Positions 730-32,080 of a stretch of 64,000 bases of DNA are shown one piece after another (position 1 is the stretch's first letter; each line of letters starts with the position of its first letter). Below the pieces are notes generated by a model. That model made no database searches, was not told the DNA's origin, and saw only the letters and a program-made list of their open reading frames with translations. The position numbers were made by a program, and so were the translations under genes. The DNA comes from an uncultured Eubacteriales bacterium. GTDB taxonomy: Bacteria > Bacillota > Clostridia > RGIG6154. Location: positions 14,055 through 78,054 of the forward strand of contig CAZMRY010000001.1 of assembly GCA_964568815.1 (NCBI GenBank), in the 5' to 3' direction.

Positions 730-2733
730 TCAATCAGTTACCATCCATACTGCCATTTTTGATTCTTCATTCCATAATTTACCAGCTGACGAATAGTCAG
801 TTAGCATAATCTTCTTCCCATTTTTTAAAGGAACATTTACAGCTACAATGTAATCATATGGAATATTTTCATCAGTCAGAGTAACATCCACATACCCGGC
901 TTCGTTAACTTCTATATCTATAGGCTCCATAATATCATATCCCAGACGGTTTTCCTGAGCGAGCATTATAGGTCCTCTTCTTAAAGCCACATGCTTTTTT
1001 GCAAGTTCGTCTTCTTTGTCATATGTAGGAATTACACAATTATGTCCCCATATAACTGTATTCATTAAAATCTGAGTACCATAAGGTATAGGATAAATTG
1101 CCTCTGTTCTCATATCAAGCTCTATTTCAATAATATCTCCATCTGACCAGATTCTTTTAATTGATGTATAACCATTTTCAACTTCTATTGAAGACGAATT
1201 CACATATATCTTATTTTTGTGACTCCACTCTGGAATTCTAATTGAAATTTCAAATTCTTCTATATTTTCAAGATGAATTTTAGTAGATATTTTACCATTC
1301 TTGGGGTATTCAGTATCAGTTTGAAAAGTAATTCTGTTATTTTGCGGAGTTTTTGTTGTTACAGTACCATTAATAAATAAGTTAAATACAAAACCCTCTT
1401 TAGAAGTAAGTAACTGAATTTTTGGTATTAATCCTACACCCAGAGCACCGATGCAAGCACAACAACCATAATAATGATTGTCAGACATAACCTTAAGTCC
1501 TCCGACTCCAGTTCCTCTTGTAGCCGCAGTAAGAGGACTGTAACTATCAAAGGTTAACGGCTCGATTACTAATTCAGGATACTTTTCTGTTAAGTATACC
1601 AACTTTTCAGCATTTGGATCTTCCAGCAAAATTGATGGTTTTGAAATATTTTCTGTATTTACAGAGCCTAAGTATGCGTTATACAAAGACCTTTCAAAGG
1701 CATCAACATATTTTGGATTACCCGTGAGAAGTGTTAACTGATAAAAGAATTTCATTAAAGTTACAGTTACGCAGGTTTCCTGCATATTTTTCCCGTTTGT
1801 TGTATTTGCTTGTCTGACAGTCGAGTGGTCAAACAATTCATGAGTGCAGCCACAGCATCCAATAACTGTAAAATCTGTTTCCAAAATCCTATCAGCAAAA
1901 TTTATAATGGCCGTTTTGTACTTCTCTACTTCCGTAATTCTATAATATTCCAAAAGACCTTCAAAGCAGGATGTCATTTCATAAGCCTTTGTTACAGGAT
2001 ACTGATACGGATATAGCTCATTTTTAAAAGCTAATTCAAAAATGTTTACAATATCTGCACCGCCTGTATTTACTATGTATGTTGCAAAATCTAAATATTT
2101 CTTTTCTTTTGTTATATTGTATAATCTGACAATAGGTTCTAGTATTGAAGAAGAATTCACTCCTCTCCAATGTCTCGTTGCAGAAGTAATGGGTTTCTTC
2201 CCCTCACCGTCACCGATTTTTTCAATTATGTAATCTACTTGTCTGCACATAGAAGCAATTATTTTTTTATTCAGCATTTCGTCTTTGGAAATTTCGAGAA
2301 AATATTGCATTCCAAGTAAAACATATTTTCTGCCCCAAATATCCCAGCCGTCAAACTCATGAGAAACGCTATAACTGCTTATACGCCCATCCGAACCTTG
2401 AACATCAAGCATATCACAAACTGTTTGAAGTAAAACATCATACAATTCATCATTTTTTGTATAAGAATATACAAAGCAGGCACCTCGCATCATTTTACCC
2501 CAGTATTCTCCACGCCATCCTGCATCACTATCGGCATCCTCACAAAACTGATTAACAAATCTTTTCCACAAAGTAGCATTTAGAAGTTGATTTTTTTCAA
2601 CAAAGCGTATGCTCTTCTCTAAAAAGCCATTGTATTCATACTCGTTTTCGCGATCAGCAAAATAAATATCTGTTTTTAGTTTTGGACTATCCGCTGAATT
2701 TACGCTGATTAAATATTTAAAATAACTATTCAT
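730..2733 (-). CDS. glycoside hydrolase family 127-like (DUF1680 / beta-L-arabinofuranosidase-like) protein
   Basis: 667 aa with an N-terminal WRGEYWGKMMRG-type motif and a Cys-rich segment (GCCGCTHELFDHS, YGCCACIGALG) resembling the GH127 fold. The family assignment is from memory of its motifs. Confidence 0.55.
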   Translation of the reverse strand: MNSYFKYLISVNSADSPKLKTDIYFADRENEYEYNGFLEKSIRFVEKNQLLNATLWKRFVNQFCEDADSDAGWRGEYWGKMMRGACFVYSYTKNDELYDVLLQTVCDMLDVQGSDGRISSYSVSHEFDGWDIWGRKYVLLGMQYFLEISKDEMLNKKIIASMCRQVDYIIEKIGDGEGKKPITSATRHWRGVNSSSILEPIVRLYNITKEKKYLDFATYIVNTGGADIVNIFELAFKNELYPYQYPVTKAYEMTSCFEGLLEYYRITEVEKYKTAIINFADRILETDFTVIGCCGCTHELFDHSTVRQANTTNGKNMQETCVTVTLMKFFYQLTLLTGNPKYVDAFERSLYNAYLGSVNTENISKPSILLEDPNAEKLVYLTEKYPELVIEPLTFDSYSPLTAATRGTGVGGLKVMSDNHYYGCCACIGALGVGLIPKIQLLTSKEGFVFNLFINGTVTTKTPQNNRITFQTDTEYPKNGKISTKIHLENIEEFEISIRIPEWSHKNKIYVNSSSIEVENGYTSIKRIWSDGDIIEIELDMRTEAIYPIPYGTQILMNTVIWGHNCVIPTYDKEDELAKKHVALRRGPIMLAQENRLGYDIMEPIDIEVNEAGYVDVTLTDENIPYDYIVAVNVPLKNGKKIMLTDYSSAGKLWNEESKMAVWMVTD

Positions 2734-2869: not shown

Positions 2870-4081
2870 TTATTCGTTTGGTCCTTCACCACAGTCAGGA
2901 ACATCCATAGGTACTCCACCCTGTTTTGCAGACTCTATGGCAACAAGTCCAGGGATTGTATATCTTGCTGCTTTCCATACATTAAGAATCGGTTGCTTAT
3001 TGTTATAAACTGCCTTACAGAAATCATCAATAAGGAATTTATGACTTCCCATATGACCATTTGGAAGACCATCATACTCTTTTGGAAGTCTGTCTACCTC
3101 TTTTTGCTGAACAGGAGAAAATACATCCCACTGCCATTCGTGATTTGCTGCCTTTGTTTTAAATTCAGGATCATTTTTGTTTGCAGTCATCTCGCCTGAA
3201 TTAACATATTCGCTCACATCTGTCAGTTTCATTTTTTCAGCTTCACCAGGTTTTGATATTCTTTGAATTAAAATATGCTGAGCATTACTGAACTCATAAC
3301 TGCCATCCACGCCATAAAATCCTGATATATATGAGCTTGGACTTTTATATCCTATTCTTCTGGCTTCAGTTACTCTTGCGATACCGCCATTTGAAAGCTC
3401 CATAAGCACATACTGATTGGAAAATTCGTTGTCCCATTCATTTGTTCCCTTACCAAATCTACCATCGTTAACTGTATCCTTGTAACCCATACATACAACT
3501 TTTTTTGCATAAGAATTTGTAGCCGACAGTATCATACCTGTAGAGTGTGTTGGATAGAACAAAGGTGGCATACCTGCTTCATTTGGAGTTTTCCCATATC
3601 CGATAGCATCAATATCGTGAAAATACTGGCTGTCGCCGTGTACAAATGTACCAAACTTTCCTTCTTGATATGCCGCTCTGCAGAACATAGCACATGGATA
3701 ATAATAGCATGTTTCACCCATCATATATATTTTTCCTGTTTGTCTTACAAGCTCTACAATTTCCTGACAATCTTCAACAGATGTAGCCATAGGAACAGCA
3801 CTATACAAATTTTTCCCTGCTTTGAGTGCCCGAATAACGATATCTCCATGTAAATGTCTTTGCGTGAAGTTAGCAATACAGTTAATATCAGGATTTGCCA
3901 GTGCATCCTCGTAGGTATCTATAATTTCTACATCAAATCTGGTTTTATAATCCTCCGCTTTTTCTCTGATCAGGTCGCACACATAAACTTTTTCAACATA
4001 AGGATGTGCTTTAAATAATGGAACAAAAAATTGTGCAAACCTACCGCAGCCGATAATAGCGACTGTTAATTTTTCATTCAT
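2870..4081 (-). CDS. Gfo/Idh/MocA family oxidoreductase
   Basis: N-terminal Rossmann motif VAIIGCGRFAQ at 403 aa, the typical length for NAD(P)-dependent sugar dehydrogenases of this family. Confidence 0.8.
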   Translation of the reverse strand: MNEKLTVAIIGCGRFAQFFVPLFKAHPYVEKVYVCDLIREKAEDYKTRFDVEIIDTYEDALANPDINCIANFTQRHLHGDIVIRALKAGKNLYSAVPMATSVEDCQEIVELVRQTGKIYMMGETCYYYPCAMFCRAAYQEGKFGTFVHGDSQYFHDIDAIGYGKTPNEAGMPPLFYPTHSTGMILSATNSYAKKVVCMGYKDTVNDGRFGKGTNEWDNEFSNQYVLMELSNGGIARVTEARRIGYKSPSSYISGFYGVDGSYEFSNAQHILIQRISKPGEAEKMKLTDVSEYVNSGEMTANKNDPEFKTKAANHEWQWDVFSPVQQKEVDRLPKEYDGLPNGHMGSHKFLIDDFCKAVYNNKQPILNVWKAARYTIPGLVAIESAKQGGVPMDVPDCGEGPNE

Positions 4082-4095
4082 CAGAATTCCTCCTG

Positions 4096-5106
4096 TTATA
4101 AATTAACCAAAACACCTTCGTCGGCAGATTTGTGAATGGACTGCATAATTTCTGTGAGGTGTCTTGCATAATCAAGTGTTACAATGTATGGTTTACCCTT
4201 TAAAGTTTCCGCAATCATTGAATAAATAGAATAGTGGTCACCAAAAATTTTACCCTCAAGAGTAATATTTGTTTTTTCTGTGTGAGTTACACTTCTATAA
4301 ACAGTTGGGTCATCTGCTCCAGGATATGAAATTTCATGGATTTCCATTTCGTTGCCCTTAACATAAATAGTACCCTTATCACCCTGCACAACCCAATTAG
4401 GAAGATAGTCAGATATAATATTGTGATCAACCTGCACTATTATACCGCTCTCTGTAACCATAGTTGAACAGAACATATCATCAGCATCGCCCGGATTGAT
4501 AATCTGTCTTTTTTGTGCATAAACTGACTTAATCGGCTCGCCAACCAGACACATAGCCTGTTCTACAATATGAGGACCCCAGTTGTTAAGGTATCCGCCT
4601 GCATAAGCCTTAAGAGTCTGCCAGTCGCTTCTTTTACCAAAAGTCATCTGGGCACGGTAAACACGAAATACTTTACCAATTTTACCTTCTTTGATTACTT
4701 CTTTAAGCTTAACAACATCAGCACCATCATGACAAGGAATGAAAGGCATAACAACTACATTATTTTTAGCAGCTTCACTTATAATTGAGTCTGCTTCATC
4801 TGTAGTAATAGCCCATGGCTTTGTAATAAGTACATTTTTTCCTGCACGAATAAAATCAAGTGCCATTGCAGTGTGCATAAAGCTGTATGTAAGAATGATT
4901 GCAAAATCATACTCATCGCTATTTAAAATTGTATGGTAATCAGTAACCTTTCTCGCATCAGGAAATCTTTCTGAATACTTGTCGAGAGCCTCCTGATTTA
5001 CATCACATATAACCTTAACCTCAAATTCAGGGTGTTTTTCAAGTACCGGTCCATGAAGTTCATTTGCAGTACGACCGCAACCTATAATCGCTGTTCTTAT
5101 TGCCAT
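4096..5106 (-). CDS. Gfo/Idh/MocA family oxidoreductase
   Basis: IRTAIIGCGRTANELHG Rossmann motif at 336 aa. Confidence 0.8.
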   Translation of the reverse strand: MAIRTAIIGCGRTANELHGPVLEKHPEFEVKVICDVNQEALDKYSERFPDARKVTDYHTILNSDEYDFAIILTYSFMHTAMALDFIRAGKNVLITKPWAITTDEADSIISEAAKNNVVVMPFIPCHDGADVVKLKEVIKEGKIGKVFRVYRAQMTFGKRSDWQTLKAYAGGYLNNWGPHIVEQAMCLVGEPIKSVYAQKRQIINPGDADDMFCSTMVTESGIIVQVDHNIISDYLPNWVVQGDKGTIYVKGNEMEIHEISYPGADDPTVYRSVTHTEKTNITLEGKIFGDHYSIYSMIAETLKGKPYIVTLDYARHLTEIMQSIHKSADEGVLVNL

Positions 5107-5120
5107 AATAAATTACTCCT

Positions 5121-5927
5121 TTATTTATAATTATTTATTGTATTCTTTAACATTGCGAGTGCTTTTTTCATACTTTCCAAGCCTTCGCCGTTTTTTGTTT
5201 CAAATGAAATTGTTCCGTCATAATTAATGTATACAAGATTATCAAGCACTTTTTTCACATAATCGCTGTAACCGTCTTCAGGCAGCATACGCTCCATCTC
5301 AGCTATATGAACATGCTTTAGGCTGTCCTTGTATTTAACAACATCATCTGCATTATCATCATTTGCTATCATATGAATAGTATCACAAAGAAGTTGAATT
5401 CTTGGGTTATTTACATCATTTACAACTCTCATACCATCTGCTAAAGTATTGATAAAGTTACAAGCAGACGCACGAAGAGGCTCCATAACCACTGTAATAT
5501 CATATTTTTCACAAGCAGGAACAATTATATCCTTACAGATTTTTGCTATTTGTTCATAGCCCATATCCTGTGTAGTTTTTTCGTCAAGAGCTCTTGCAGG
5601 TGCACTGCCAAACACAACTTTTTTAACTCCAAGTTTTTTTAAACGACCAAAGGTTTTTTCTATATAGTCAGAAATAGCCTTTTCATTAACTTCACTTCCT
5701 GTAACCCTTATTGTTCTTGGGAAAAGTGCACAACTACATTCACATCCAAGTTCAATTTCCTTAAGAACATTGCATAGCTTATCAAATTCTTCATCTGGTA
5801 CTGATTCAACAAGCATTGCTCTCATTTCTACGTAATCAAATCCTGCTTCCTTAATCATTTTTATAAGCTCATAGTCTATCTCCGTTTTCATTGGTGTTGA
5901 AAACTCTTTACAAAAACCATACTTCAC
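5121..5927 (-). CDS. sugar phosphate isomerase/epimerase (xylose-isomerase-like TIM barrel)
   Basis: 268 aa with size and composition typical of the AP-endonuclease-2 / xylose-isomerase-like TIM-barrel family. It sits within the sugar locus. Confidence 0.65.
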   Translation of the reverse strand: MKYGFCKEFSTPMKTEIDYELIKMIKEAGFDYVEMRAMLVESVPDEEFDKLCNVLKEIELGCECSCALFPRTIRVTGSEVNEKAISDYIEKTFGRLKKLGVKKVVFGSAPARALDEKTTQDMGYEQIAKICKDIIVPACEKYDITVVMEPLRASACNFINTLADGMRVVNDVNNPRIQLLCDTIHMIANDDNADDVVKYKDSLKHVHIAEMERMLPEDGYSDYVKKVLDNLVYINYDGTISFETKNGEGLESMKKALAMLKNTINNYK

Positions 5928-5930
5928 TTT

Positions 5931-6971
5931 CTAATCCTCCTTCGGTCCATAGAACCTTATAAGTTTCAATTTGCCTTTAATATCAAAATTTTCACAAACT
6001 GCAGAAATAAAATACTGACTACCTGGTTTTAGTTTTTCACCATTCAGCTCTCCGCAGCCTTCAAGGACATAAATACCACTAAACACACCGTTGCTCTTAA
6101 AGGTTTTTACTCCGTTAATATCAACCATATCAAGAGAAAACATCGGCGTATTCTCATAATTTAGAATGCTTTCACCTCGTTTTTCAATTTTCCATCTGTT
6201 CTTTATTTGATTTTCAGAGTATCCTTCATAAGTGAAACAATCAAACATTTTATCAAAACCAAGTCCCTGATGACACATAAAGTCAGCAACCTTTAGACCT
6301 TTAGGTGTAACCCTTTCTGTCCTGATTGTATAATCAGTAGGCTCTTGTACCTCAATCAAAAAGCAACCTGTCCCTATCGCATGTGGAATACCTCCCTCTA
6401 TAAGAAAGGTATCACCTTTTTTTACCTCAAATTTGTGAAGACAATCAAGCATTTTAGGAATATCTTGTTTATCAAAAACTTCCTTCCAATACTCTCTGGT
6501 AATGCCCTCTTTAAACCCAAAGTAGATACAAGGCTTTTGTCCATCAATTTCTCTCCCGCCTAATATATGCCAACATTCCGTCTTTCCAAACTCTGAATTG
6601 AAGAGCTCTCTCGCCTTTTCCTTTGTGGGATGAACTTGTATTGTCAATCTTTCAGCAGAGTCAATGATTTTAACCAAAACACCAAGATTATTTCCAAAAC
6701 GTTCAATATGTCTTTTGCCAAGTGTGTGCTCTGGATTCTCATTTACCACATCTGCAAGAGTTATATCCGTTCCATTAACAAAACTAATTCCCTCAACAAT
6801 ATCTTCTCTGCCACTGTTTCTTGCTCTTACCGTTGACATTATCCATTCTTCTGGAAAATTTGTATCCTCTGCATCATTTATACCATGAAGTGCATCAATC
6901 AAGCTTCCGCCTGTATATGTACGCCATGCACCTGTTCTGCTGAGTTTTATAGGCTTTTTAAGGTCAATCAT
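5931..6971 (-). CDS. class I mannose-6-phosphate isomerase (type I phosphomannose isomerase)
   Basis: 346 aa with the cupin core motifs LTIQVHP and GKTECWHIL characteristic of Firmicutes type I phosphomannose isomerases. Confidence 0.7.
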   Translation of the reverse strand: MIDLKKPIKLSRTGAWRTYTGGSLIDALHGINDAEDTNFPEEWIMSTVRARNSGREDIVEGISFVNGTDITLADVVNENPEHTLGKRHIERFGNNLGVLVKIIDSAERLTIQVHPTKEKARELFNSEFGKTECWHILGGREIDGQKPCIYFGFKEGITREYWKEVFDKQDIPKMLDCLHKFEVKKGDTFLIEGGIPHAIGTGCFLIEVQEPTDYTIRTERVTPKGLKVADFMCHQGLGFDKMFDCFTYEGYSENQIKNRWKIEKRGESILNYENTPMFSLDMVDINGVKTFKSNGVFSGIYVLEGCGELNGEKLKPGSQYFISAVCENFDIKGKLKLIRFYGPKED

Positions 6972-7759
6972 CTTGTTTTATCCTCGTTTGCAAAGTCACG
7001 GACTGTACCTGTTGGTCTGTGACTGAAGTTGAGTCTTTTAAGTCCGGCTTCTTTATCAGGCATAAAGTCAACCCACATGTAGTGCATATGTCTATCTCCC
7101 GTCACTTCTGCTCCGTGATTTGAGCCAAGGGGAATATGGATAATCGCGTCACCCTTCATATTATACTTGCCATCGTCAATGATAACTTCCATATCATTTT
7201 CTGCAAAGCTGTAGAAGAACTGGTCAAGCATTGGGTGTGCATGTGGTCTTACTAAATCATAACCATAAGACTCAACACTGCCAATTGTAAATCTTGGTAT
7301 AATTTCATGAGGAATCATCATTCTGCTGATGGTTTTTTCACTCTTGTTAGGATCAATATACTGAATAGATTCCTGATAAGGTACAATAACAGGAAATTCT
7401 GTCTTATATTCCTTTAAGTCCTCAGCATCGCCTTCTTCTTCGTCCCATTGAATTTCAAGAACACGGGTTTCAGCAATTGCTTTAACAACAAGGTCTTTTT
7501 TAGGATCTGATACAAATGTTGTTCTGTCATTAAATTTGTATTCCTTTTCATCTGTTGCAAACACTGCGTTTCCTTCTAAAAGAATTAAAATATGATAATA
7601 TCCAACATTTGCATCAAATGTTACACTGTCTCCCTCTGCAATTTTATGATGAACAGGTCTCGCACCATTGATTTCACCTTTGCAAAGTTCTACTGAATGT
7701 GTTCCTTCTTTTTTTGTATCTACATACTGAAAATTTACTGTGTCTGACATAATTAACAC
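6968..7759 (-). CDS. hypothetical protein, possibly cupin-fold, co-transcribed between the glycyl radical enzyme and the isomerase
   Basis: 263-aa ORF overlapping both neighbours by a few nt in a translational-coupling arrangement. No recognisable catalytic motif. Confidence 0.45.
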   Translation of the reverse strand: MLIMSDTVNFQYVDTKKEGTHSVELCKGEINGARPVHHKIAEGDSVTFDANVGYYHILILLEGNAVFATDEKEYKFNDRTTFVSDPKKDLVVKAIAETRVLEIQWDEEEGDAEDLKEYKTEFPVIVPYQESIQYIDPNKSEKTISRMMIPHEIIPRFTIGSVESYGYDLVRPHAHPMLDQFFYSFAENDMEVIIDDGKYNMKGDAIIHIPLGSNHGAEVTGDRHMHYMWVDFMPDKEAGLKRLNFSHRPTGTVRDFANEDKTR

Positions 7760-9972
7760 TCCTCCGTCTTAATTTTATTTCCATTTACAGATGTTACCCT
7801 ATCCACAACAAGTTGCCTGAATTCCTCAGAAAGCATCGCGAAAAACGCTGTAAATCCTGTAACTCTAACTACAAGATCAGGATACTTAAACGGATCTTTG
7901 TGTGCCTCAAGGATTTTGTTGGCATCAATTATATTAATATTTAAAAGGGTATTCCCTGTGTTCATAATAGTTCGAATCATATCTGCCATTTTGTCAATTC
8001 CTTCTTCATCATTGACAATACCCGGATCAAACTCAAGTTGAACAGGAGCACAGTTTCCATAACCTGGCTGAATTGCGCCAATAGAGTTGCACATTGCAGA
8101 AACTGCTCCGTCTTTTCTAAAACCGCCATTCGGATTAGCACCATGATTTATCGCCTCGTAGGCTTTTCTGCCGTTTGGAGTAGCAGCAACAGTTTTGCCA
8201 AGACCAATTGTGTTTGACCAAGAAAAGAAACCGGGTATAAAGTTAATACCTGGATGCTGATTATTCAGGTCACGCACTAAGCTTGTGTAAATCTCGCTGA
8301 CTTTCTTTGCCCACACATCACCAAGAGTATCTCCTCCACAGTAACGCTCACTATGTTGCATCAGCTGACGAATGTATTCGCCATCTTTATCCTCATAGTT
8401 GTTTTTCATATGCTCTGTAAGTTCTTCAAAAGAGATTTTGCCCTCTTTTTCTATTCTTTGCTCAAGCGCCGCAAAGCTATCTGCTACAACTGCTATACCG
8501 CTGCCGTCAACACACATATTATAGTAGTTGGCACCGCCATCTGTAATATTAACACCTTTTTCAATCAGTCCGTGCTGGAAAAGATTTAATATAAGTTCAG
8601 GTTGTGTTTTTGACTGATACTTAAGATGATGCATAATTCCGTTTCCTGTTGCATCAACGGCAATTTTAAGATGTTTTTGATAAATTTCCCAAAGTTTGCT
8701 TACTGACTTTTCTTCAGACTCTTCCATCATTTCGTAATATGCAACTTCAAATGTCTTGAGTAAATTTATTTTAATTGTGTCATTCATTGTATATTCCATA
8801 CCCGGTATACACATCCAATGACATCCTGCTGCAACTCTTTTTCTGGCAAGCTCAAGTGGATATCCACATTTCATAAAACCTTCAGCAAGAGCTGTATCAG
8901 AAGAATATCTTGGCCACCCCTGTTTGTTTTTGAAAAGGTACGCAACTGATTTCTTAAAAAATTCTTCATCCAAATTGTCGTGAACACGAATTGTAAGGTT
9001 ACAAGCTATGTTTATTTTATCAGCTGCATCGAGGCAAAGGTAGGATATCTTTGATGTCATATCCTTTCCGTTTGCATCAGGTCCTCCAAGCTGAAAATAT
9101 CTGCTGTCCTGTAAGAAAAGACAAGCAAGATAGAACACAGCTTCCTCGTCAGTTAAAATGCCATCTTTAGTATCTTTCTCATAGTAGGGTCGAAGCATTT
9201 CATCAAGTTGACCTCCCGCGCTTCCCCTGTTGTATGTACGAGAAAGCATACTGAACCAACACATCCACTGAATTGCTTCTTTGAAAGTTTCAGGTGGCAC
9301 CGTTGCGATTTTCTTATTCATTTTTGCCATTTCATAGAGATTTTCCTTGAGCTGAGGATTATTTTCCTTATCTCCGAGTTCTTTAATCTCACTTGCCATT
9401 CTGTTCAAAAAACGGATAATTGCTTCTACAACTGCAATTTCGCTGTCATAAAACTCATAATGTGTTTCGTTGTGCAATTTTCTTTGTTCTTTAAGCTTAT
9501 CAAGTATGCCACCCCACCCAAGTTCAAAGCCTATCTGTAAGTCAGGCGTAAAGTGGTGGCAATTATCAATACCCGAAATTATATTATATTTGTCAAATAA
9601 CTTTTGTAGTTCATCAAACGGGTAAGCAGGATTCCACTTCTTATCAACTGGTCTCAATCTTTCTAAAAACAGAAATCCCTTGCCCACAAATGCATCTAAC
9701 GGCTCACAATAAAGCGGATGCTGATCCAATATGGAACAGTAATTTTCTGTCCACGCCTTATAACCATAAATAGAACCGTTTTCGTGATTTGGCTTTAACT
9801 TGTAATTAAATTCATTTTGAACAATCAGACCATAATCATCTTCATTTGCTCCACCATTTCTGGCTTTTTCTTCAGTTTGTGCCACCTTTCTTTTTCGAAG
9901 TAAGGCAATTCTTTCATCATAAGTAAAGGTTTTATCTGTTTCAAACTGATTTATAAATTTAATTTCACTCAC
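7753..9972 (-). CDS. glycyl radical enzyme (pyruvate formate-lyase fold) of unknown substrate
   Basis: 739 aa with a C-terminal glycyl-radical motif VVRVTGFTAFFAML (the RVxGY-type Gly loop, here with Phe replacing Tyr). A dedicated activase lies two genes upstream, and there is an internal Cys-containing loop AAGCHWMCIPG. Confidence 0.8.
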   Translation of the reverse strand: MSEIKFINQFETDKTFTYDERIALLRKRKVAQTEEKARNGGANEDDYGLIVQNEFNYKLKPNHENGSIYGYKAWTENYCSILDQHPLYCEPLDAFVGKGFLFLERLRPVDKKWNPAYPFDELQKLFDKYNIISGIDNCHHFTPDLQIGFELGWGGILDKLKEQRKLHNETHYEFYDSEIAVVEAIIRFLNRMASEIKELGDKENNPQLKENLYEMAKMNKKIATVPPETFKEAIQWMCWFSMLSRTYNRGSAGGQLDEMLRPYYEKDTKDGILTDEEAVFYLACLFLQDSRYFQLGGPDANGKDMTSKISYLCLDAADKINIACNLTIRVHDNLDEEFFKKSVAYLFKNKQGWPRYSSDTALAEGFMKCGYPLELARKRVAAGCHWMCIPGMEYTMNDTIKINLLKTFEVAYYEMMEESEEKSVSKLWEIYQKHLKIAVDATGNGIMHHLKYQSKTQPELILNLFQHGLIEKGVNITDGGANYYNMCVDGSGIAVVADSFAALEQRIEKEGKISFEELTEHMKNNYEDKDGEYIRQLMQHSERYCGGDTLGDVWAKKVSEIYTSLVRDLNNQHPGINFIPGFFSWSNTIGLGKTVAATPNGRKAYEAINHGANPNGGFRKDGAVSAMCNSIGAIQPGYGNCAPVQLEFDPGIVNDEEGIDKMADMIRTIMNTGNTLLNINIIDANKILEAHKDPFKYPDLVVRVTGFTAFFAMLSEEFRQLVVDRVTSVNGNKIKTEEC

Positions 9973-9991
9973 AATAATACCTCCTTAAAGA

Positions 9992-10843
9992 TTACACTCC
10001 ACTGTAGGCAGAAAATCCTCCGTCTACAGGTACTACAACACCATTTACAAATGTTGCACCTTCTGACAAAAGCCACAACAGTGTGCCTCTTAGTTCTTCA
10101 GGCGTACCAAAACGATTCATCGGAGTGCTGTTAATTATCTTTTGCGACCTTTCTGTGTAGTTCCCATTCTCATCAATAAGCAAAGCTTTATTTTGATTAG
10201 TTAAGAAAAAGCCAGGTGCTATTGCATTCACCCTGATTCCAACTTTTGAGAAATGTACAGCAAGCCACTGTGTAAAGTTTGATATTGCTGCTTTTGCACC
10301 ACTATATGCAGGTATTCTTGTTAATGGGCAAAAAGCATTCATAGATGAAATATTTATAATGTTTGCATCCTCTGATTCTATTAAATCAGGGGTAAAAACT
10401 TGAGTTGGTAATAATGTACCAAGAAAATTAAGATTAAAAACAAATTCAATTCCTTTTGGATCTAAATCAAAAAATGTTTTTATCTCTTCACAATTTTCAT
10501 CACCAATTTCATAATAATCCTTGGTAGTTGTTCCCTTTGAATTATTACCTCCCGCTCCATTTAACAGTATATCAATTTTTCCATATTTTTCATTGATAAT
10601 ACGCTTTGCATTAACAAGGCTTTGTTTTTCGAGTACATTTGTTGATATTGCAATCGCTTCTCCACCATCATTAACTATTTCATCTACAACTTTTTGTGCT
10701 GCTTCGCCATTTAAATCAAGCACCGCAACCTTTGAGCCACATTTTGCAATTACTTTTGCAAAGTCGGAACACAAAATGCCGCCACCACCGGTAACTACTG
10801 CAACTTTATCTTTTAAATCAATTTCAAAAGGTAATTTAATCAC
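9992..10843 (-). CDS. short-chain dehydrogenase/reductase (SDR), likely mannonate or other sugar-acid oxidoreductase
   Basis: VAVVTGGGGILCSDFAKVIAKCGSKVAVLD Rossmann motif and SDR length. It overlaps the start of uxuA by 4 nt. Confidence 0.8.
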   Translation of the reverse strand: MIKLPFEIDLKDKVAVVTGGGGILCSDFAKVIAKCGSKVAVLDLNGEAAQKVVDEIVNDGGEAIAISTNVLEKQSLVNAKRIINEKYGKIDILLNGAGGNNSKGTTTKDYYEIGDENCEEIKTFFDLDPKGIEFVFNLNFLGTLLPTQVFTPDLIESEDANIINISSMNAFCPLTRIPAYSGAKAAISNFTQWLAVHFSKVGIRVNAIAPGFFLTNQNKALLIDENGNYTERSQKIINSTPMNRFGTPEELRGTLLWLLSEGATFVNGVVVPVDGGFSAYSGV

Positions 10844-11889
10844 TTTTCGCTCCTATCCAAAGCTTCCCAAATGCCATTGATATAAACAGCACCTAAAGCT
10901 CTATCATACAAACCATATCCCGGTTTGCCGTTTTCTCCCCAAATCATTCTTCCATGGTCCGGACGAATGTATCCATCAAAACCATTATCGTGATATGCTT
11001 TAATAATAGCATAAATATCGAGTGAACCACATTCTGTCTTATGTGCTGCTTCTTCAAAGCATTTATCACCTGTTATCTTGATATTTCTAATATGTGCAAA
11101 GTGTATTCTATCACAGAATTTATTAATCATTTCTACTATATCATTCTCGGGGTCAACACCAAGCGAACCGCTGCAAAGTGTTAATCCATTGTATTTGCTA
11201 TCATACAATTTTAAAAATCTTTCAAGATTTTTTGCGTTAGTGATAATTCGCGGTAAACCAAAAATGCTCCATGGTGGGTCATCAGGATGAATTGCCATTT
11301 TGATTTTAACTTCTTCTGCAACCTTTATAACTTTATCTAAGAAATATTTTAAGTTATTCCATAAGTCCTCTTCTGTTATAGATTGATACTTTGTCATAAG
11401 CTCCTTCATTCCTTGCTTGGTATAACTTGAATCCCAACCTGGTAATGCCAAATTCCCTGTTAATGGATTCATATCGTGGACAGTTTCTTCACGATATATC
11501 AGTGCGTGAGACCCGTCTGACAATTCAAAATTCAAATCTGAACGAGTCCAATCAAAAACCGGCATAAAATTGTAGCATACGCAATCAACACCTGCTTTTG
11601 CAAGGTTTCTTAATGTTTCACAATAATTTTGTATGTATATATCTCTGTCCCCATCACCTGTTTTTATATCTTCATGTACGGGTACGCTTTCAATTACACT
11701 TAATTTAAGACCTTTCGCCTCAACATCGCTTTTTAATTTCAGTATTCTTTCAAGCGGCCAAACCTCTCCAACAGGAACATCATATACTGCTGATACAATT
11801 CCTGTAACACCCGGTATTTGTTTTATTTTATCAAGAGTAACCGGGTCATCGTGTCCATACCATCTAAATGTCATTTCCATAACAATCAC
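10840..11889 (-). CDS. uxuA: mannonate dehydratase
   Basis: MEMTFRWYGHDDPVTLDKIKQIPGVTGIVSA... closely parallels the UxuA N-terminus (MEQTWRWYGPNDPVSL...) and the ...ESVPVHEDIK motif, at 349 aa. Confidence 0.8.
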   Translation of the reverse strand: MIVMEMTFRWYGHDDPVTLDKIKQIPGVTGIVSAVYDVPVGEVWPLERILKLKSDVEAKGLKLSVIESVPVHEDIKTGDGDRDIYIQNYCETLRNLAKAGVDCVCYNFMPVFDWTRSDLNFELSDGSHALIYREETVHDMNPLTGNLALPGWDSSYTKQGMKELMTKYQSITEEDLWNNLKYFLDKVIKVAEEVKIKMAIHPDDPPWSIFGLPRIITNAKNLERFLKLYDSKYNGLTLCSGSLGVDPENDIVEMINKFCDRIHFAHIRNIKITGDKCFEEAAHKTECGSLDIYAIIKAYHDNGFDGYIRPDHGRMIWGENGKPGYGLYDRALGAVYINGIWEALDRSEK

Positions 11890-11890
11890 C

Positions 11891-12790
11891 CTATATAACC
11901 TTTACAGTTATACCTTTACTTTCTGCTATTTTTTTTAATTCTTCTAACTTCTCATCACAGAGAGGACTTTCTTTTACAAAGTCGTTTGCTTTGTTTAAAC
12001 TCTTATATTTGCCTTCGCCAAGTGGATTAAAGTTTAACATCTCATACCTTACAAGGTTCCTTAAATCCTTTATGTAATCAGCAATTTGCTCAATATTTTC
12101 TTTGTTGTCTGTCACACCAGGTATAAGTGGAGTTCTAATTATAAATGGAATATTAAGTTTATCTAATTTCTTAATATTGTCCAATACAACACTATTGGAT
12201 ACACCTGTGTATTTCTGATGTTTTTCATTATCAAAAATCTTAATATCGCACATTACCATATCCAAATTATCAATTAAACTCTGTGCATTTTCCAAAGGCA
12301 CAGATAAGTTCGTTTCTATTGCAATATTAATATCTTCAGTTTTGCAAGCTTTTGCAAGTTCCGTTGCAAATTCAATGTTGCAAAGCACCTCACCACCTGA
12401 AATTGTAACACCGCCATTGGAATTATTATAATATGCCTTATCCTGTAGTATCTGTTTCATAACATCATCTACTGTCATGGTTTTACCACACATTACAAGT
12501 GCTTCTGCATAACACACTTCTGCACATTTTCCGCAAGAAACACACAATTCTCTATCTATAACGTGCTTTTCATCAACAATTTTGTGTGCACCTTTAGGAC
12601 AAGCTTCAAAGCACTTGCCGCAACCTATGCACTTTGAATCATAGAACATAAGCTCAGACTTATTAGAAAGGGTTTCAGGATTATGACACCAAGTGCAGTG
12701 CATATTACATCCTTTTAGAAACACTGTCGTTCTTATTCCGGCACCATCACTTAATGAAAATCTTTGAATATCTGTAATTAATGTTTTCAT
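11891..12790 (-). CDS. glycyl-radical enzyme activating protein (radical SAM)
   Basis: CNMHCTWCHNPE radical-SAM CxxxCxxC motif plus two ferredoxin-like clusters (CIGCGKCFEACP, CVSCGKCAEVC). The 299-aa size is typical of non-PFL GRE activases. Confidence 0.85.
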   Translation of the reverse strand: MKTLITDIQRFSLSDGAGIRTTVFLKGCNMHCTWCHNPETLSNKSELMFYDSKCIGCGKCFEACPKGAHKIVDEKHVIDRELCVSCGKCAEVCYAEALVMCGKTMTVDDVMKQILQDKAYYNNSNGGVTISGGEVLCNIEFATELAKACKTEDINIAIETNLSVPLENAQSLIDNLDMVMCDIKIFDNEKHQKYTGVSNSVVLDNIKKLDKLNIPFIIRTPLIPGVTDNKENIEQIADYIKDLRNLVRYEMLNFNPLGEGKYKSLNKANDFVKESPLCDEKLEELKKIAESKGITVKVI

Positions 12791-12976
12791 ATTCTCCTCC
12801 TGTGATATTTCAGATAAAATTATATTGGTTTAATCATAATAACAATTAAAACTCTTCTAATATTTCACAAACATTTTTTCTGTGAGTTTCCTCAACGAGA
12901 CAATTATTATATATACAAAACCTATTACTGCTATAATATACTCATTGTCGGGAATATTTGCAGTTTTTAAATTTGC

Positions 12977-13903
12977 TCACGATATAACGACTTTTACAAT
13001 TGGTATAATTACAAGACTCATCAATGTTGAAATTGCAACCATAACAGCAGGATATTTATCATCTACCCCGTATTGTCTTGCAATAACAGTCTGACTTGCC
13101 ATAACTGGCATGAAAGCCTGAACAATAAACACATTCCTTGCAAGTGAGTCAACATTAAGCAGCATAATTCCAACAATGAAAACCAATGGTGAAATTATAA
13201 ATCTTGCAACAAGTCCAAGACATACGCTTTTATCGAGTCTTATATTTTTAAGACCAAATTGACCTAAAGCAAAGCCAGTAAATATCATAGAAAGTGGGGT
13301 TGTCATACCGGCTATGTATTTTATTGTATCATTTGCAAAATCAGGTAATCCAAAACTTGGATAAGCTTCCCTGACTAGTACGACTATAATCCCGAGTACA
13401 AGTCCATATAATGGTGTAGGAATTTTAAACTTACCAGTAATCTTTTTCCCTGCAATTACTCTTATACCAATACTCCAAAACAGAATTGTACTAGCAACAT
13501 AATAATATAAAATTATTGATGCATTTGCTTCCCCAAAAAGAGCAATACTTACAGGCATTCCCATAAACAATGTATTATTAAATGCTGTCAAAGCAATAAA
13601 CGAGCCTTTTTTTTCTTCATATATTTTGAAAGCTTTGGCAATAGCCCATGCAAAAATCATTGAAACAATTTGTGACAACATAATCACCGTAACATAAAGT
13701 GGAATATTTTTTAGTTCTTCACTTCCTAATGAGGTTGTTACAGTTTTAAAAACACTACAAGGTAAAGTAATATTTACTACAAAATAGGATAAAAAGCTGC
13801 CGATTGAATTTGTTATTTTCCCATTAACCTGTAAAACATAACCTATAAACACCAATAATACTATTGTAAATACCGACTGAAAAGCCGTAACTAGTTCACC
13901 CAT
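12977..13903 (-). CDS. AEC family (auxin efflux carrier-like) membrane transporter
   Basis: Polytopic membrane protein of ~308 aa. The ORF track starts at 13936, but the ATG at 13903 overlaps the upstream TGA by 8 nt (ATGGGTGA) and is preceded by GGAGG, so 13903 is the more likely start. Confidence 0.7.
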   Translation of the reverse strand: MGELVTAFQSVFTIVLLVFIGYVLQVNGKITNSIGSFLSYFVVNITLPCSVFKTVTTSLGSEELKNIPLYVTVIMLSQIVSMIFAWAIAKAFKIYEEKKGSFIALTAFNNTLFMGMPVSIALFGEANASIILYYYVASTILFWSIGIRVIAGKKITGKFKIPTPLYGLVLGIIVVLVREAYPSFGLPDFANDTIKYIAGMTTPLSMIFTGFALGQFGLKNIRLDKSVCLGLVARFIISPLVFIVGIMLLNVDSLARNVFIVQAFMPVMASQTVIARQYGVDDKYPAVMVAISTLMSLVIIPIVKVVIS

Positions 13904-14900
13904 TATTCCTCCACTCCACATTATCATAGATATCAAAAACTAGTTTCATTGTATCATAAGCGTCGTTTATATCCGTATAATGTTCCCCATTGCCATTAAG
14001 TGAATCATAGAAACTGCTAATAACTGTCAGATGACCGCTACCCCAATATGACTTTCCCACCTTAACACTTTTGTCAGAAGTTATATATTCTGCACCCTTT
14101 TCTCCAATTTTGTATAAACAATTATCTGCATAACGATAATGAGCCTTTTCAAACAAAAGATCTAAAATATACGGTTCATCAACCACATAACAATTGGAGG
14201 CATTAAATATTCCTCTTGCGCCATTTTCAAAGTACATTAAGACCTGAGCATTGTCTTCAACCTCAATATTTGAAATATGCCAGTGATTTATGCTCGCCTT
14301 AAAATCCTCCACTTTGCCGCCAAAATATAGCATCATATCAATCATATGCACCGTCTGGTTTATAAGCAAACCGCCACCCTCGGTAGCCCATTTGCCTCTC
14401 CATTCATCCTGATTGTAATATGCTTCGTCTCTTTTCCAAAAAACATTACCTATAATACCTTTGAGTTTACCCAAATCATTGTTCAATACAATTTCTTTTA
14501 ACTTTTCTATACATACATTTCGTCTATTTTGCAGCATAACGCAAAGTTTCTTTTTGTTTTCGTCACTGTTTACAAAAGCAACAAGTTCGTCCATTTCGTT
14601 TTTGTTGATTGCAACAGGCTTTTCCAAAACAACATCTTTTCCTGATTTTAAAGCCTTAATTGTCATATCTTTATGTAAATAATGAGGAGTGCATATATGT
14701 ACAACATCAATATTGCAGTCCTTTAACATTTCCTCAAAGTCATTATAAACAATGCAGTTATATTCATCAGCACATTGCCTTGCCCGGCTGTCATTAATAT
14801 CGCATACGGCATATAGTGTTACATTTTTAATTTTCTTTATTGCATTTGCATGAACAGGTCCTATAGCTCCGTATCCAACTATACAAATATTCAATTTCAT
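13896..14900 (-). CDS. Gfo/Idh/MocA family oxidoreductase
   Basis: MKLNICIVGYGAIGPVHANAI Rossmann motif at 334 aa. Confidence 0.8.
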   Translation of the reverse strand: MKLNICIVGYGAIGPVHANAIKKIKNVTLYAVCDINDSRARQCADEYNCIVYNDFEEMLKDCNIDVVHICTPHYLHKDMTIKALKSGKDVVLEKPVAINKNEMDELVAFVNSDENKKKLCVMLQNRRNVCIEKLKEIVLNNDLGKLKGIIGNVFWKRDEAYYNQDEWRGKWATEGGGLLINQTVHMIDMMLYFGGKVEDFKASINHWHISNIEVEDNAQVLMYFENGARGIFNASNCYVVDEPYILDLLFEKAHYRYADNCLYKIGEKGAEYITSDKSVKVGKSYWGSGHLTVISSFYDSLNGNGEHYTDINDAYDTMKLVFDIYDNVEWRNNG

Positions 14901-15095: not shown

Positions 15096-15995
15096 GTGTT
15101 AATTTTGTACTTAAAAGATATTGATCCGTTTGTAAGACAATCTTTGATTACACATTTAAATCGCAATAATGAAAAAGATATATTTGTCAAACTAAAAACA
15201 TATGACCACCGTTTATTCTATATATTATCAGACAAAGGAAATATTATAATCAACGATAAACAATACCCCTTGGAGTATGGTTCTGTAATACTATTTCAGT
15301 CCGGCACCGAATATATGTGGCAATTAGAAAACGACAATGAATTAAAATTCATCGCCGTTAACTTTGATTATGCTCATGAGTTTTCGCACATAAAATCTTC
15401 TATGCATCCAATACATTCAAACAATTTCGACAGCAGAATGATACTTGAAAAAATAGAATTTGAAGATACAAAAATATTAAATGCTCCGATTATTATAAAT
15501 AAAATTTCTTCATTTGACAGAGATATAAGAAACCTATCCACGGAGTTTACAATAAAAGCTGAATACAGAGACGAGCTTCTATCAACTATAATGAAATCTT
15601 TAATAATTAAGATAATACGTTCAAAAGCTATAGGCACCGCAAATCCTAATAAGAATTATAAGTTTGTGAAAAAAATAATCGAATACATTCAAAACAACTA
15701 TACAAGTCCACTCACCAATGAATCAATAGCAGAACATTTTAAAATCCATCCTGTATATCTCAATAGAGTATTTAAGGAATATACTAACAAATCAATTCAT
15801 GCTTTTATTTTAAGCTACAGGCTTTCCGCTGCATGTATTTTACTTCGTTCAGAAGACTTACCCATAAATCTAATTGCATCTTCAGTAGGATACACTGATA
15901 CTATACAATTTTACAAAATGTTCAAAAAACACATAGGTGTAACTCCCAAACAATTCAGGATCAACGCACCTAACGAAAACTCTCAAGATATATAA
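15096..15995 (+). CDS. AraC family transcriptional regulator, divergent from the sugar locus
   Basis: C-terminal AraC HTH (ESIAEHFKIHPVYLNRVFKEYTNKSIHAF ... IASSVGYTDTIQFYKMFKKHIGVTPKQFR). The start is a GTG at 15096 immediately after AAAGG; a TTG at 15105 is an alternative. Confidence 0.8.
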   Translation: MLILYLKDIDPFVRQSLITHLNRNNEKDIFVKLKTYDHRLFYILSDKGNIIINDKQYPLEYGSVILFQSGTEYMWQLENDNELKFIAVNFDYAHEFSHIKSSMHPIHSNNFDSRMILEKIEFEDTKILNAPIIINKISSFDRDIRNLSTEFTIKAEYRDELLSTIMKSLIIKIIRSKAIGTANPNKNYKFVKKIIEYIQNNYTSPLTNESIAEHFKIHPVYLNRVFKEYTNKSIHAFILSYRLSAACILLRSEDLPINLIASSVGYTDTIQFYKMFKKHIGVTPKQFRINAPNENSQDI

Positions 15996-18257: not shown

Positions 18258-18512
18258 TCATAAGCCTGCTTGCATTGAGAATGTGATGTCTTGTTTATGT
18301 CCCATTTTATTGCGGTTTACGCGAGAAAATTTCCATTGTTGTTCCGGTGTCATCATATTAACCATCTGACCGCCAACGCTACCAGCCTGCTTAGATGTTA
18401 AGTCACCGTTGTAACCCTGTTTGAGGTTAACACCTACTTCGTTTGCAGCTTCCATTTTAAACTGTTCCATAGCAGCTTTTGCTTCAGGAACCATTGTGTT
18501 TCTTCTTGACAT
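18258..18512 (-). CDS. alpha/beta-type small acid-soluble spore protein (SASP)
   Basis: EAKAAMEQFKMEAANEVGVNL...AGSVGGQMV matches the two conserved SASP boxes (KxExAxEfGV and GxVGG). The ORF track extends to 18617, but the ATG at 18512 is preceded by AAGGAGTG at a 9-nt spacing, giving an 84-aa protein. Confidence 0.8.
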   Translation of the reverse strand: MSRRNTMVPEAKAAMEQFKMEAANEVGVNLKQGYNGDLTSKQAGSVGGQMVNMMTPEQQWKFSRVNRNKMGHKQDITFSMQAGL

Positions 18513-18722
18513 TTCTTTTACACTCCTTGAATATTTTTCGTGATAATAACTTAAAAAGATTTCTTTTTCAATCATCATCACGCTACTATTATTTGCATTG
18601 GACATTAAGGTATTCAAGTATGTTTTTCTAAAAATTGAAATATTTTCTATTCAAATAAAATTTATTATTTCCATTGAATTATTTAAAAAAGTATGATAAA
18701 ATTTATTAAAACATAAAGGAGA

Positions 18723-20924: not shown

Positions 20925-21205
20925 ATTTAAACGCTGAGATGCGGAATAGTACGCAAAACACTTTCGCCTTGAGAGAGGTGCCGGTTGCTGCGAGGCATTG
21001 GGAAAGATTTGCAGAACTCACCGCGGAGCGGTTGCCGTGAACTAACAGTAGGGGCAAACGGGAACTCCCGTTACAGAGTTAAGATGTGTTAGCATCTAAG
21101 GTGCATTCTGAGCGAATGAAGAAGAGTGGTACCGCGGAAACGAAATTATAGCGTTTTCGTCTCTTTGAACCAACAGAGAGATGAAAGCGCTTTTTTGTTG
21201 GTTAT
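20925..21205 (+). promoter_or_regulatory. T-box riboswitch leader
   Basis: Conserved T-box sequence GAGTGGTACCGCGG at 21124-21137. The stem I elements cttGAGAGAGgtgccggttgctgcgaggca are shared with leader 2. An imperfect terminator (gcgttttcgtctctttg...caacagagagatgaaagcgc plus TTTTTT) ends at about 21200. Confidence 0.8.
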
Positions 21206-21239
21206 AGATATTACCTGTTATTTGAAAGGAGTTTTTAAA

Positions 21240-22628: not shown

Positions 22629-22629
22629 A

Positions 22630-32071: not shown

Positions 32072-32080
32072 GAGGAAGCT

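Follow-up and report, generated by a model that had tools for sequence, protein, structure and literature searches.

A glycyl radical enzyme with a C-x-W catalytic loop and an obligate bicupin partner in a carbohydrate-type operon of gut anaerobes

Strict anaerobes rely mainly on glycyl radical enzymes (GREs) for chemically hard steps, and earlier GRE assignments each revealed a gut-relevant pathway, such as those from choline to trimethylamine (TMA) and from sulfonates to H2S and those of hydroxyproline and anhydroglucitol. Whole GRE clades are still unassigned (PMC13450708). According to Ma et al. 2024, as summarised in the superfamily review of June 2026 (PMC13450708), YbiW and PflD are the 1,5-anhydroglucitol-6-phosphate/1,5-anhydromannitol-6-phosphate C-O lyases of anhydroglycolysis, and sugar-acting GREs are no longer unprecedented since then. 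A C-x-E motif is retained by the three GRE isomerases and by every eliminase that cleaves C-O, C-N or C-S bonds, a class that covers glycerol dehydratase (GD), propanediol dehydratase (PD), HypD, CutC, IslA, HpsG, HplG, YbiW and PflD; the Glu of the motif hydrogen-bonds to or deprotonates a substrate hydroxyl, and in glycerol dehydratase the leaving group is protonated by His164 (PMC13450708). Here we describe a GRE encoded in a stretch of 64,000 nucleotides from an uncultured Eubacteriales bacterium (contig CAZMRY010000001.1), hereafter the window. This GRE represents a new subclass with an altered catalytic loop, C-x-W in place of C-x-E, and with a new obligate partner, a bicupin. The literature searched, up to August 2026, describes neither a C-x-W GRE nor a module that pairs a GRE with a bicupin.

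Judged by its sequence, the GRE is a member of the superfamily, yet outside every characterised class. It has a barrel like that of pyruvate formate-lyase (PFL), a glycine-radical domain, the glycine of the RVxG motif and the cysteine of the Cys loop, and an activase with a CX3CX2C motif is encoded nearby. The two catalytic motifs, read from the translation, lie at:

8791-8826, minus strand: Cys loop G383-C384-H385-W386-M-C-I-P-G-M-E393-Y394
7852-7866, minus strand: glycyl radical motif R703-V-T-G706-F

The GRE fold was confirmed by an AlphaFold2 (AF2) model (pLDDT 92, pTM 0.91), which matches every solved GRE at TMq 0.72-0.83 and with an identity of 16-24%; among the structural matches in Foldseek, CutC and the dehydratases of glycerol and propanediol are practically level with PflD. 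The best sequence match in the PDB is E. coli PflD (8yjo) with 193 bits, in comparison to 290-880 bits for relatives of the own clade; glycerol dehydratase (1r8w) scores 181 bits, and the identity to these best solved relatives is 19-24%. Membership in an NCBIfam equivalog or subfamily was not reached for PFL2-3 (subfamily; 270 bits vs. a cut-off of 678), HpsG (225 vs. 1000), HypD (217 vs. 1100) or CutC (185 vs. 1050). Because the best PDB match is this low and no NCBIfam equivalog comes near its cut-off, we place the GRE outside the characterised clades.

In an ungapped alignment of the Cys loops, GCHWMCIPG of the window corresponds to GCVELSIPG of PflD and GCVEPQKPG of glycerol dehydratase. 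The C-x-E of eliminases and isomerases is thus absent from the loop, which reads G-C-H-W. W386 aligns with Glu435 of glycerol dehydratase and H140 with its His164, both being invariant among 50 orthologues. Invariant in the same set are G, C, H, W, M, P, G, E and Y of the Cys loop and the RVTGF motif, and R703-V-T-G706 and C384 are also invariant in 43 diverse GREs. By alignment, the GRE therefore retains the putative radical site G706, the catalytic C384 and H140, and the Glu of C-x-E is replaced by W386.

Public databases name such proteins "formate acetyltransferase" and a PFL-like Pfam domain is present. A function as pyruvate or 2-ketoacid formate-lyase is nevertheless extremely improbable, as the score on the PFL equivalog TIGR01255 is 60 bits with a cut-off of 994, PFL structures are the weakest GRE matches (51 bits), and the adjacent Cys-Cys pair is absent from the G-C-H-W loop. 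In addition, the activase carries two extra ferredoxin-like motifs, which the PFL activase is not known to have. Resemblance to X-succinate synthases and arylacetate decarboxylases was not found either: genes for a small Fe-S subunit are missing and the partner bicupin has no Cys-rich motif. The structures of benzylsuccinate synthase (BSS), (1-methylalkyl)succinate synthase (MASS) and 4-hydroxyphenylacetate decarboxylase (HPAD) are among the weakest GRE matches with 54-92 bits.

The C-x-W loop defines a wider clade. From an exhaustive search of 1.84 billion representative proteins, 95 full-length matches were aligned; 24 of these representatives carry C-x-W, with x being H, N, Q, F or occasionally P or G, and 59 carry C-x-E. 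The C-x-W representatives range from 53% down to approximately 26% identity and have a median length of 734 amino acids (aa; n=24), compared with 792 aa for the C-x-E proteins (n=59). Several positions distinguish the two groups: Glu at position 393 occurs in 22/24 C-x-W and 10/59 C-x-E proteins, an aromatic residue at 394 in 24/24 and 26/59, Asp at 398 in 24/24 and 12/59, and Trp at 585 in 17/24 and 3/59. E393 and D398 are enriched in the C-x-W proteins, and therefore the catalytic carboxylate seems to have been relocated (E393/D398) rather than lost. By alignment, W386 and W585 probably fall where other GREs have residues of the active-site lining.

The genes that surround the GRE in the window, in the order of transcription of the minus-strand operon and followed by the divergent regulator, are:

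13896-14900, minus strand: Gfo/Idh/MocA oxidoreductase, 334 aa; best family match IolG, below cut-off
12977-13936, minus strand: AEC (Mem_trans) family transporter, a lineage-specific accessory (Pfam/NCBIfam)
11891-12790, minus strand: GRE-activating radical S-adenosylmethionine (SAM) enzyme, 299 aa; TIGR02494, 341 bits
10840-11889, minus strand: UxuA mannonate dehydratase; PF03786, 520 bits; NCBIfam 511 bits, cut-off 191
9992-10843, minus strand: UxuB-type short-chain dehydrogenase/reductase (SDR); PRK08277 "D-mannonate oxidoreductase", 438 bits, cut-off 281
7753-9972, minus strand: GRE, 739 aa; PFL-like PF02901, 328 bits; Gly_radical PF01228, 58 bits
6968-7750, minus strand: bicupin, 260 aa, family-specific; metal motif H173-x-H175-x3-D179 ... 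H215
5931-6971, minus strand: cupin isomerase like phosphomannose isomerase (PMI), 346 aa; PF20511, PF21621; TIGR00218, 99 bits, cut-off 116
5121-5927, minus strand: xylose-isomerase-like triose-phosphate isomerase (TIM) barrel, 268 aa; PF01261
4096-5106, minus strand: Gfo/Idh/MocA oxidoreductase, 336 aa; 75-94% identity among type-A loci
2870-4081, minus strand: Gfo/Idh/MocA oxidoreductase, 403 aa (Pfam/NCBIfam)
730-2733, minus strand: GH127-like glycoside hydrolase (Pfam), a neighbour not conserved with the module
below position 700, minus strand: truncated ATP-binding cassette (ABC) sugar permease with EAA motif
15096-15995, plus strand: divergent AraC-family regulator

These gene assignments agree with Pfam and NCBIfam and with the first-pass annotation of this DNA, which was made from the sequence alone and placed all genes of the operon correctly on the minus strand. 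Its "small unknown protein" after the GRE is a real gene, now identified as the 260-aa bicupin with a putative metal site; the features that define the system, namely the C-H-W loop, the obligate bicupin and the pair of TIM-barrel and Gfo enzymes, were missed. The bicupin starts at the ATG at 7750, 2 nt past the GRE stop codon and preceded by a GGAGG site. Gaps of more than 100 bp are found only at 12791-12976 and 2734-2869, and this intergenic spacing fits co-transcription. No terminator-like site was seen in these two gaps in a consensus scan, promoter and terminator scans being uninformative here, and an Rfam scan gave no riboswitch near the operon. The CX3CX2C motif of the activase is CNMHCTWC, encoded at 12686-12709, and two ferredoxin-like Cys motifs are present in addition. 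The DNA of the window is of the low-GC Clostridia type, and the nearest relative locus belongs to a metagenome-assembled genome (MAG) of Ructibacterium sp. (Oscillospiraceae) with a GRE that is 97% identical at the protein level.

To describe the neighbourhood, 62 genome loci with GRE orthologues of 58-97% identity were compared by clustering of open reading frames (ORFs) and tblastn. Each of the 62 derives from a gut MAG, the hosts being ruminants, other animals and humans on high-fibre diets. The carriers belong to the Oscillospiraceae, Lachnospiraceae and Christensenellales, to a Spirochaetales MAG and to the Lentisphaeria. The GRE is very strongly conserved: its identity is 70-97% across the lineages of Clostridia, and the orthologues from Spirochaetales and Lentisphaeria still reach 58-79%. 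The activase gene lies directly 5' of the GRE gene in 54/55 loci and the bicupin gene directly 3' of it in 53/53, while a PMI-like gene follows within 2.5 kb downstream in 41/47. The genes for activase, GRE, bicupin and PMI-like protein thus stay together as a conserved, closely linked module. Genes for a TIM-barrel epimerase/isomerase and for NAD(P)-dependent Gfo/Idh/MocA oxidoreductases accompany this module, being found within 10 kb in all 27 loci with full flanks. An AraC gene is present in 15 of these 27 loci; in type-A loci it is divergent and lies upstream of the activase gene. In one Oscillospiraceae MAG (L024:1-5600), a second, unrelated GRE of 24% identity with its own activase is encoded a few kb upstream of the C-x-W module.

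In 23/62 loci, including 10/27 with full flanks, the separate TIM and Gfo genes are replaced by one encoding a TIM::Gfo fusion protein of 630 aa with the TIM barrel at the N-terminus and the Gfo part at the C-terminus, for example at L027:7155-9047. The fusion occurs in L021, L023-L025, L027, L029, L031, L033-L038, L040-L042, L044, L047, L048, L050, L051, L057 and L059. On the basis of this fusion, we argue that the TIM and Gfo enzymes may catalyse consecutive steps. The pairing of GRE and bicupin was also recovered in the reverse direction, as in metagenome contigs the GRE gene was directly upstream of a bicupin gene in 15 of 19 informative loci. In two distant subfamilies (bicupin 30-31%, GRE 41-47% identical) the order is changed to bicupin, activase, GRE, and in one of these reordered loci (L098), whose contig extends further, the GRE gene is followed by a PMI-like gene. 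The pairing persists in the reordered subfamilies, and therefore the association outlives rearrangement.

The proteins encoded with the GRE are isomerase-, epimerase- and dehydrogenase-like. In 34 orthologues of the PMI-like protein the motifs QVHP, KTE.W and PHA are conserved; Q112, H114, E132 and H196 are the residues we take to be the type-I PMI zinc ligands, while the score of 99 bits on TIGR00218 is under the ManA cut-off of 116. A sulfoquinovose substrate was considered on the assumption that SqvD, the sulfoquinovose isomerase of Firmicutes, is PMI-like, and was dropped, as SqvD belongs to the FucI family (PMC9594981). The TIM barrel resembles most, by sequence, the ketose 3-epimerases, IolO and YcjR: its NCBIfam matches below cut-off are psicose 3-epimerase (84 bits) and IolO (78 bits), and its PDB matches are tagatose 3-epimerase and the 3-keto-glucoside 4-epimerase YcjR. 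The Gfo proteins match generically IolG, levoglucosan dehydrogenase, glycoside 3-dehydrogenases, DgpA and 1,5-anhydrofructose reductase. The bicupin has no match to the KduI/IolB Pfam family, and its top Foldseek match is quercetinase. A bicupin relative with 30% identity is encoded in a Bacteroidota-type alginate locus (L101:35-7747) with no GRE nearby, together with PL17-like, PL7 and PL6-like polysaccharide lyases with type IX secretion system (T9SS) tails, a Nramp-like transporter and a PfkB kinase. The relationship hints at a descent of the bicupin family from enzymes handling keto-deoxy-uronates.

More distant C-x-W GREs stand in simpler operons. Of three sister loci with GREs of 40-53% identity, the first encodes an RbsB/AraH-type (ribose/arabinose-type) ABC transporter, the activase, the GRE and a NagC-like regulator; the second a CUT1-type ABC transporter, a PF12831 flavoprotein, a LacI regulator, two Gfo proteins, the activase and the GRE; and the third a sugar-sensing AraC regulator, the GRE and the activase. 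None of the three encodes a phosphotransferase system (PTS), a sugar kinase or an aldolase. Their sole ROK protein carries a helix-turn-helix (HTH) domain and matches best the regulators NagC/Mlc, and in the L064 sister operon the protein that binds the substrate resembles ribose-binding proteins and nothing more specific. The absence of PTS, kinase and aldolase therefore suggests unphosphorylated uptake, and the substrates of the C-x-W clade would be imported, unphosphorylated, monosaccharide-like molecules. The simplest C-x-W operons suggest that there the GRE yields a mainstream metabolite directly. Around the window-type GREs, neither PTS nor aldolase was seen among the recurrent or annotated neighbours within 10 kb in the 62 loci, single-locus neighbours having been annotated in part. 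The contexts of the more distant C-x-W GREs P0128, P0131, P0133, P0145, P0162, P0124, P0129 and P0134 are short or uninformative, and PfkA beside P0125 is a housekeeping 6-phosphofructokinase and its position probably a coincidence. The PF12831 "FAD_oxidored" flavoprotein of approximately 400 aa recurs beside C-x-W GREs of two subfamilies (L063:3880-5094; cluster c13 in L021, L025, L027, L033, L037, L044, L048 and L051).

The genes for the mannonate dehydratase and the SDR gave the locus its first interpretation as a hexuronate/mannonate operon. Collinear comparison with L049, L053 and L002 showed that uxuA and the SDR gene are carried by an insertion of 1.89 kb (10000-11888, minus strand, relative to the collinear L049 with a GRE of 96% identity), which sits precisely between the stop of the activase gene and the start of the GRE gene. 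The pair is located within the operon only in the window and in L001; in L002-L004 and L058 it is adjacent, upstream of the AraC gene. UxuA is encoded within 10 kb in 5/62 loci. The uxuA/SDR pair is thus a local addition, and because the insertion is confined to one lineage, the mannonate framing of the module is weak. Of the neighbourhood whose conservation the first-pass annotation proposed to test, the coupling of activase and GRE has stood up, that with uxuA and the SDR gene has not: the uxuA synteny is sporadic, an outcome that annotation had itself listed among those speaking against its interpretation. A hexuronate/mannonate setting is thus not supported as a general property. The list of known GRE substrates in that annotation lacks those of the sugar-acting YbiW and PflD, described in 2024 (PMC13450708), and the view that no GRE belongs with sugars is outdated. 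Its location of the GRE outside the characterised clades agrees with ours, and an undescribed radical step on a sugar-like molecule was a fair prediction, the GRE being found in a conserved carbohydrate-type neighbourhood.

The main rival to the reading we prefer below is close to that first interpretation and concerns a sugar acid. The GRE would dehydrate or C-O-cleave a hexuronate, an aldonate or a deoxy-keto sugar acid, the bicupin would act like the keto-deoxy-uronate ketol-isomerase KduI, the PMI-like enzyme would isomerise a 6-carboxy sugar, e.g. mannuronate to fructuronate, and the products would leave via fructuronate, mannonate and 2-keto-3-deoxygluconate (KDG). The presence of uxuA and a UxuB-type SDR gene in two independent arrangements (window/L001 and L002-L004/L058) argues for it, but uxuA is missing within 10 kb in 57/62 loci. 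AEC transporters carry organic anions and one is encoded in the window, L049, L053 and L010; however, only 2/27 loci with full flanks have such a gene, and several loci have neutral-sugar CUT1 ABC permeases instead. The 30%-identical bicupin among alginate lyases and a PfkB kinase is consistent with a sugar acid, as is the retained H140, the counterpart in the alignment of the residue that protonates the leaving group in glycerol dehydratase, while the C-x-E of all known GRE dehydratases is missing. Moreover, the acidic alpha-protons of sugar acids allow ordinary dehydration, as by UxuA itself, and a radical enzyme is not obviously required. Taken together, we consider a sugar-acid substrate rather unlikely.

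Another possibility is suggested by the Gfo and TIM enzymes, which could deglycosylate 3-keto-glycosides or C-glycosides in the manner of DgpA/DgpBC, YcjQRS or BT2156-2160, the GRE and the cupins then processing what is released from a plant glycoside, either its unusual sugar or its aglycone. The partner proteins do match DgpA, YcjR, glycoside 3-dehydrogenase and levoglucosan dehydrogenase, but weakly, far under the cut-offs and no better than IolG or ketose epimerases. Rhamnosidases (GH78, GH106-like), GH2, GH127-like and GH94 enzymes are encoded beside some loci and quercetinase heads the Foldseek matches of the bicupin. However, each glycosidase neighbour is limited to 1-3 closely related loci, the GH127-like gene of the window being absent from the other loci, and the minimal sister operons contain no glycosidase. 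Furthermore, 3-keto chemistry proceeds by ionic steps for which a radical enzyme is not required. We regard glycoside processing as quite improbable. A link to rhamnogalacturonan-II, which the GH127, GH106, GH78 and GH2 neighbours might evoke, is anecdotal because each of these glycosidases occurs in three or fewer related loci.

We propose, with a confidence somewhat short of even, that the operon serves the catabolism of a sugar-like compound of the plant diet, in which the radical ring-opening or isomerisation of an unphosphorylated cyclic polyol is followed by the action of enediol isomerases. The best explanation of the gene set is a compound that is imported unphosphorylated and lies beyond the reach of ordinary acid-base chemistry. 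Radical catalysis is called for only if the scissile bond is activated by neither a carbonyl nor a carboxylate, as in polyols, cyclitols and ether-bridged (anhydro) alditols. The ring-opening of a cyclic polyol is proposed because the GRE is combined with two enediol-isomerase-like enzymes, a ketose-epimerase-like TIM barrel and NAD(P) oxidoreductases. Gene content, motif conservation and synteny are what we observed, and from these we infer substrate and chemistry. As to the substrate, a cyclitol is possible though doubtful, an anhydro-alditol is less probable than that, and most of the weight falls to another polyol or a sugar acid.

For such a cyclic polyol the following sequence can be envisaged. 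The activase would install the G706 radical, which would generate a thiyl radical at C384. With the ring of the substrate stacked between the side chains of W386 and W585, the C384 thiyl would take a hydrogen from a carbinol carbon, H140 might assist the leaving or ring atom, and E393 or D398 could assume the role of the lost Glu. The substrate radical would then undergo beta-scission, either of a ring C-O bond as in PflD/YbiW for an anhydro-alditol or, alternatively, of a ring C-C bond for a cyclitol such as inositol, and the return of the hydrogen from C384-SH would give an open-chain keto or enediol sugar. This GRE product may be tautomerised by the bicupin and the PMI-like enzyme, which are both built like metal-dependent aldose-ketose isomerases, after which the TIM and Gfo enzymes could correct the stereochemistry by oxidation, epimerisation and reduction. 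The carbon would thereby join mainstream hexose or hexuronate catabolism. Only in the lineage of the window, the UxuB-type SDR and UxuA would add an outlet from fructuronate via mannonate to KDG, with the AEC transporter recruited.

Several observations weigh against this proposal. The compensation of the missing Glu by E393 or D398 is suggested by covariation and not by a structure. The known ring-opening isomerases among the GREs keep C-x-E, which serves the formation of a ketyl (PMC13450708), and the missing Glu argues for a different chemistry. The proteins give no substrate-specific marker, and every partner stays under the cut-offs of all NCBIfam equivalogs. The relatives retrieved from the PDB for the bicupin, the PMI-like protein, the TIM barrel, GfoB and the TIM::Gfo fusion are generic, as are the fold comparisons of the partners. 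The transporters and glycosidases differ among the loci (AEC, CUT1 ABC, GH127, GH106, GH78, GH2, GH94), which leaves even the charge of the substrate uncertain. Finally, the bicupin of the alginate locus, the uxuA/SDR pair and the AEC transporter together point to keto-deoxy sugar acids over neutral cyclic polyols.

We further speculate, as an unlikely but far-reaching version, that the C-x-W GREs make up a functionally new class, in which C-C bonds of sugars are broken or rearranged, by ring-opening of inositol or by an acyl 1,2-shift in a branched sugar. In the first case, a thiyl-initiated beta-scission would convert inositol directly to a hexose 1,2-enediol, which amounts to inositol synthesis run backwards, oxygen-free and redox-neutral; the enediol would then be resolved to fructose or mannose by the bicupin and PMI-like isomerases. 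In the second case, the acyl 1,2-shift would linearise a branched plant sugar such as apiose. If true, either case would add to the GREs a chemistry that they are not known to perform, and abundant plant cyclitols or rare sugars would gain a new route into gut fermentation.

The family is widespread in Clostridia of the ruminant and human gut and is also found in Spirochaetales and Lentisphaeria MAGs. With its catalytic Glu lost and a bicupin dedicated to it, the family is a well-defined and experimentally tractable candidate, both for radical carbohydrate chemistry of a new kind and for a dietary substrate so far unrecognised. The signature C-x-W...PG-x-E-[YFW]...D, together with the module of activase, GRE, bicupin and PMI-like genes, lets annotators drop the name "formate acetyltransferase".

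The rest of the window contains other features. The operon is set apart from what follows by a gene for an ATPase_2/DUF234 protein at 16717-18135 (minus strand) and one for an alpha/beta-type small acid-soluble spore protein (SASP) at 18258-18617 (minus strand), the latter indicating a spore-former. A T-box leader (Rfam RF00230, 124 bits) at 20927-21167 (plus strand) precedes a LeuA/HMGL-like gene (ORF 21126-22628), which is followed at 22615-25089 by a gene for an 824-aa fusion of a xylose-isomerase-like TIM barrel and an AMP-binding (adenylate-forming) enzyme; this pairing is unusual for a tRNA-sensing leader. A 765-aa protein with HTH_3, Cupin_2 and AMP-binding enzyme parts (25464-27761, plus strand) could be a regulator-enzyme fusion. 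At 29546-34600 (plus strand) a restriction-modification pair is encoded, consisting of a ResIII/HSDR helicase-nuclease subunit of 841 aa and a fused N6-methylase/specificity subunit of 839 aa. A large serine recombinase (37549-39174, plus strand) adjoins a polyvalent protein of 3246 aa (39859-49599, minus strand) with MuF_C, LPD23, LPD3, PBECR3 nuclease and metallopeptidase-like domains, beyond which large ORFs without a Pfam match extend to approximately 58 kb. The region from 37549 to approximately 58 kb looks like an integrated mobile element or prophage.

Compared with glycerol/propanediol dehydratase and the other eliminases, the GRE shares the fold, an activase with two auxiliary clusters and H140 as the counterpart of His164. 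In contrast to them, the counterpart of Glu435 is a Trp, E393, D398 and W585 are largely absent from the eliminases, and neither aldehyde dehydrogenase, alcohol dehydrogenase nor microcompartment genes occur here. As to the hexuronate/keto-deoxy-uronate pathway (KduI, KduD, UxuB, UxuA), uxuA and the SDR gene are here a lineage-specific insertion; the bicupin gives no KduI/IolB Pfam match, and UxaC, KdgK and KdgA are not encoded at the locus. The iol system of Bacillus comprises the Gfo dehydrogenase IolG, the TIM barrels IolE/IolI and the bicupin isomerase IolB, and the inositol variant of Thermotoga ends in IolO, UxuB and UxuA. However, the scores here are far under the equivalog cut-offs (355 and 300), IolC, IolD, IolJ and IolA are not encoded in any of the loci, and to our knowledge the GRE and the PMI-like protein are part of no known inositol pathway.

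Sinorhizobium morelense converts 1,5-anhydrofructose (AF) to 1,5-anhydromannitol by a Gfo-family AF reductase (AFR), and an O2-dependent hydroxylation then leads to mannose (PMC12441222). The likeness consists in a Gfo-family reductase and a PMI-type isomerase around a step that functionalises the ether carbon, and AFR structures weakly match the TIM::Gfo fusion (2glx, 61 bits). The anhydrofructose pathway of S. morelense has an onward PMI step. It uses oxygen for the hard step, in place of which the GRE would have to act here, and we know of no anaerobic GRE-based counterpart that has been described.

The nearest comparison is with PflD/YbiW, from which the system differs in several respects. 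PflD and YbiW keep C-x-E, whereas the GRE of the window has C-H-W, shares only 20-24% identity with them and is approximately 40-70 residues shorter. Their system includes PTS uptake, which yields the 6-phosphate substrate, and an aldolase acting on 1-deoxyfructose-6-phosphate, neither of which is seen around the window-type GRE; uptake here is apparently unphosphorylated (AEC or ABC), and an obligate bicupin and a PMI-like partner are present. On the other hand, both share the GRE fold, and PflD/YbiW are the best matches in sequence and structure (8yjo; Foldseek TMq 0.77-0.83). PflD and YbiW act on sugar-like cyclic polyols in gut anaerobes by a redox-neutral radical ring-opening whose product enters glycolysis (PMC13450708), and they are a precedent for the opening of sugar-like polyol rings by a GRE.

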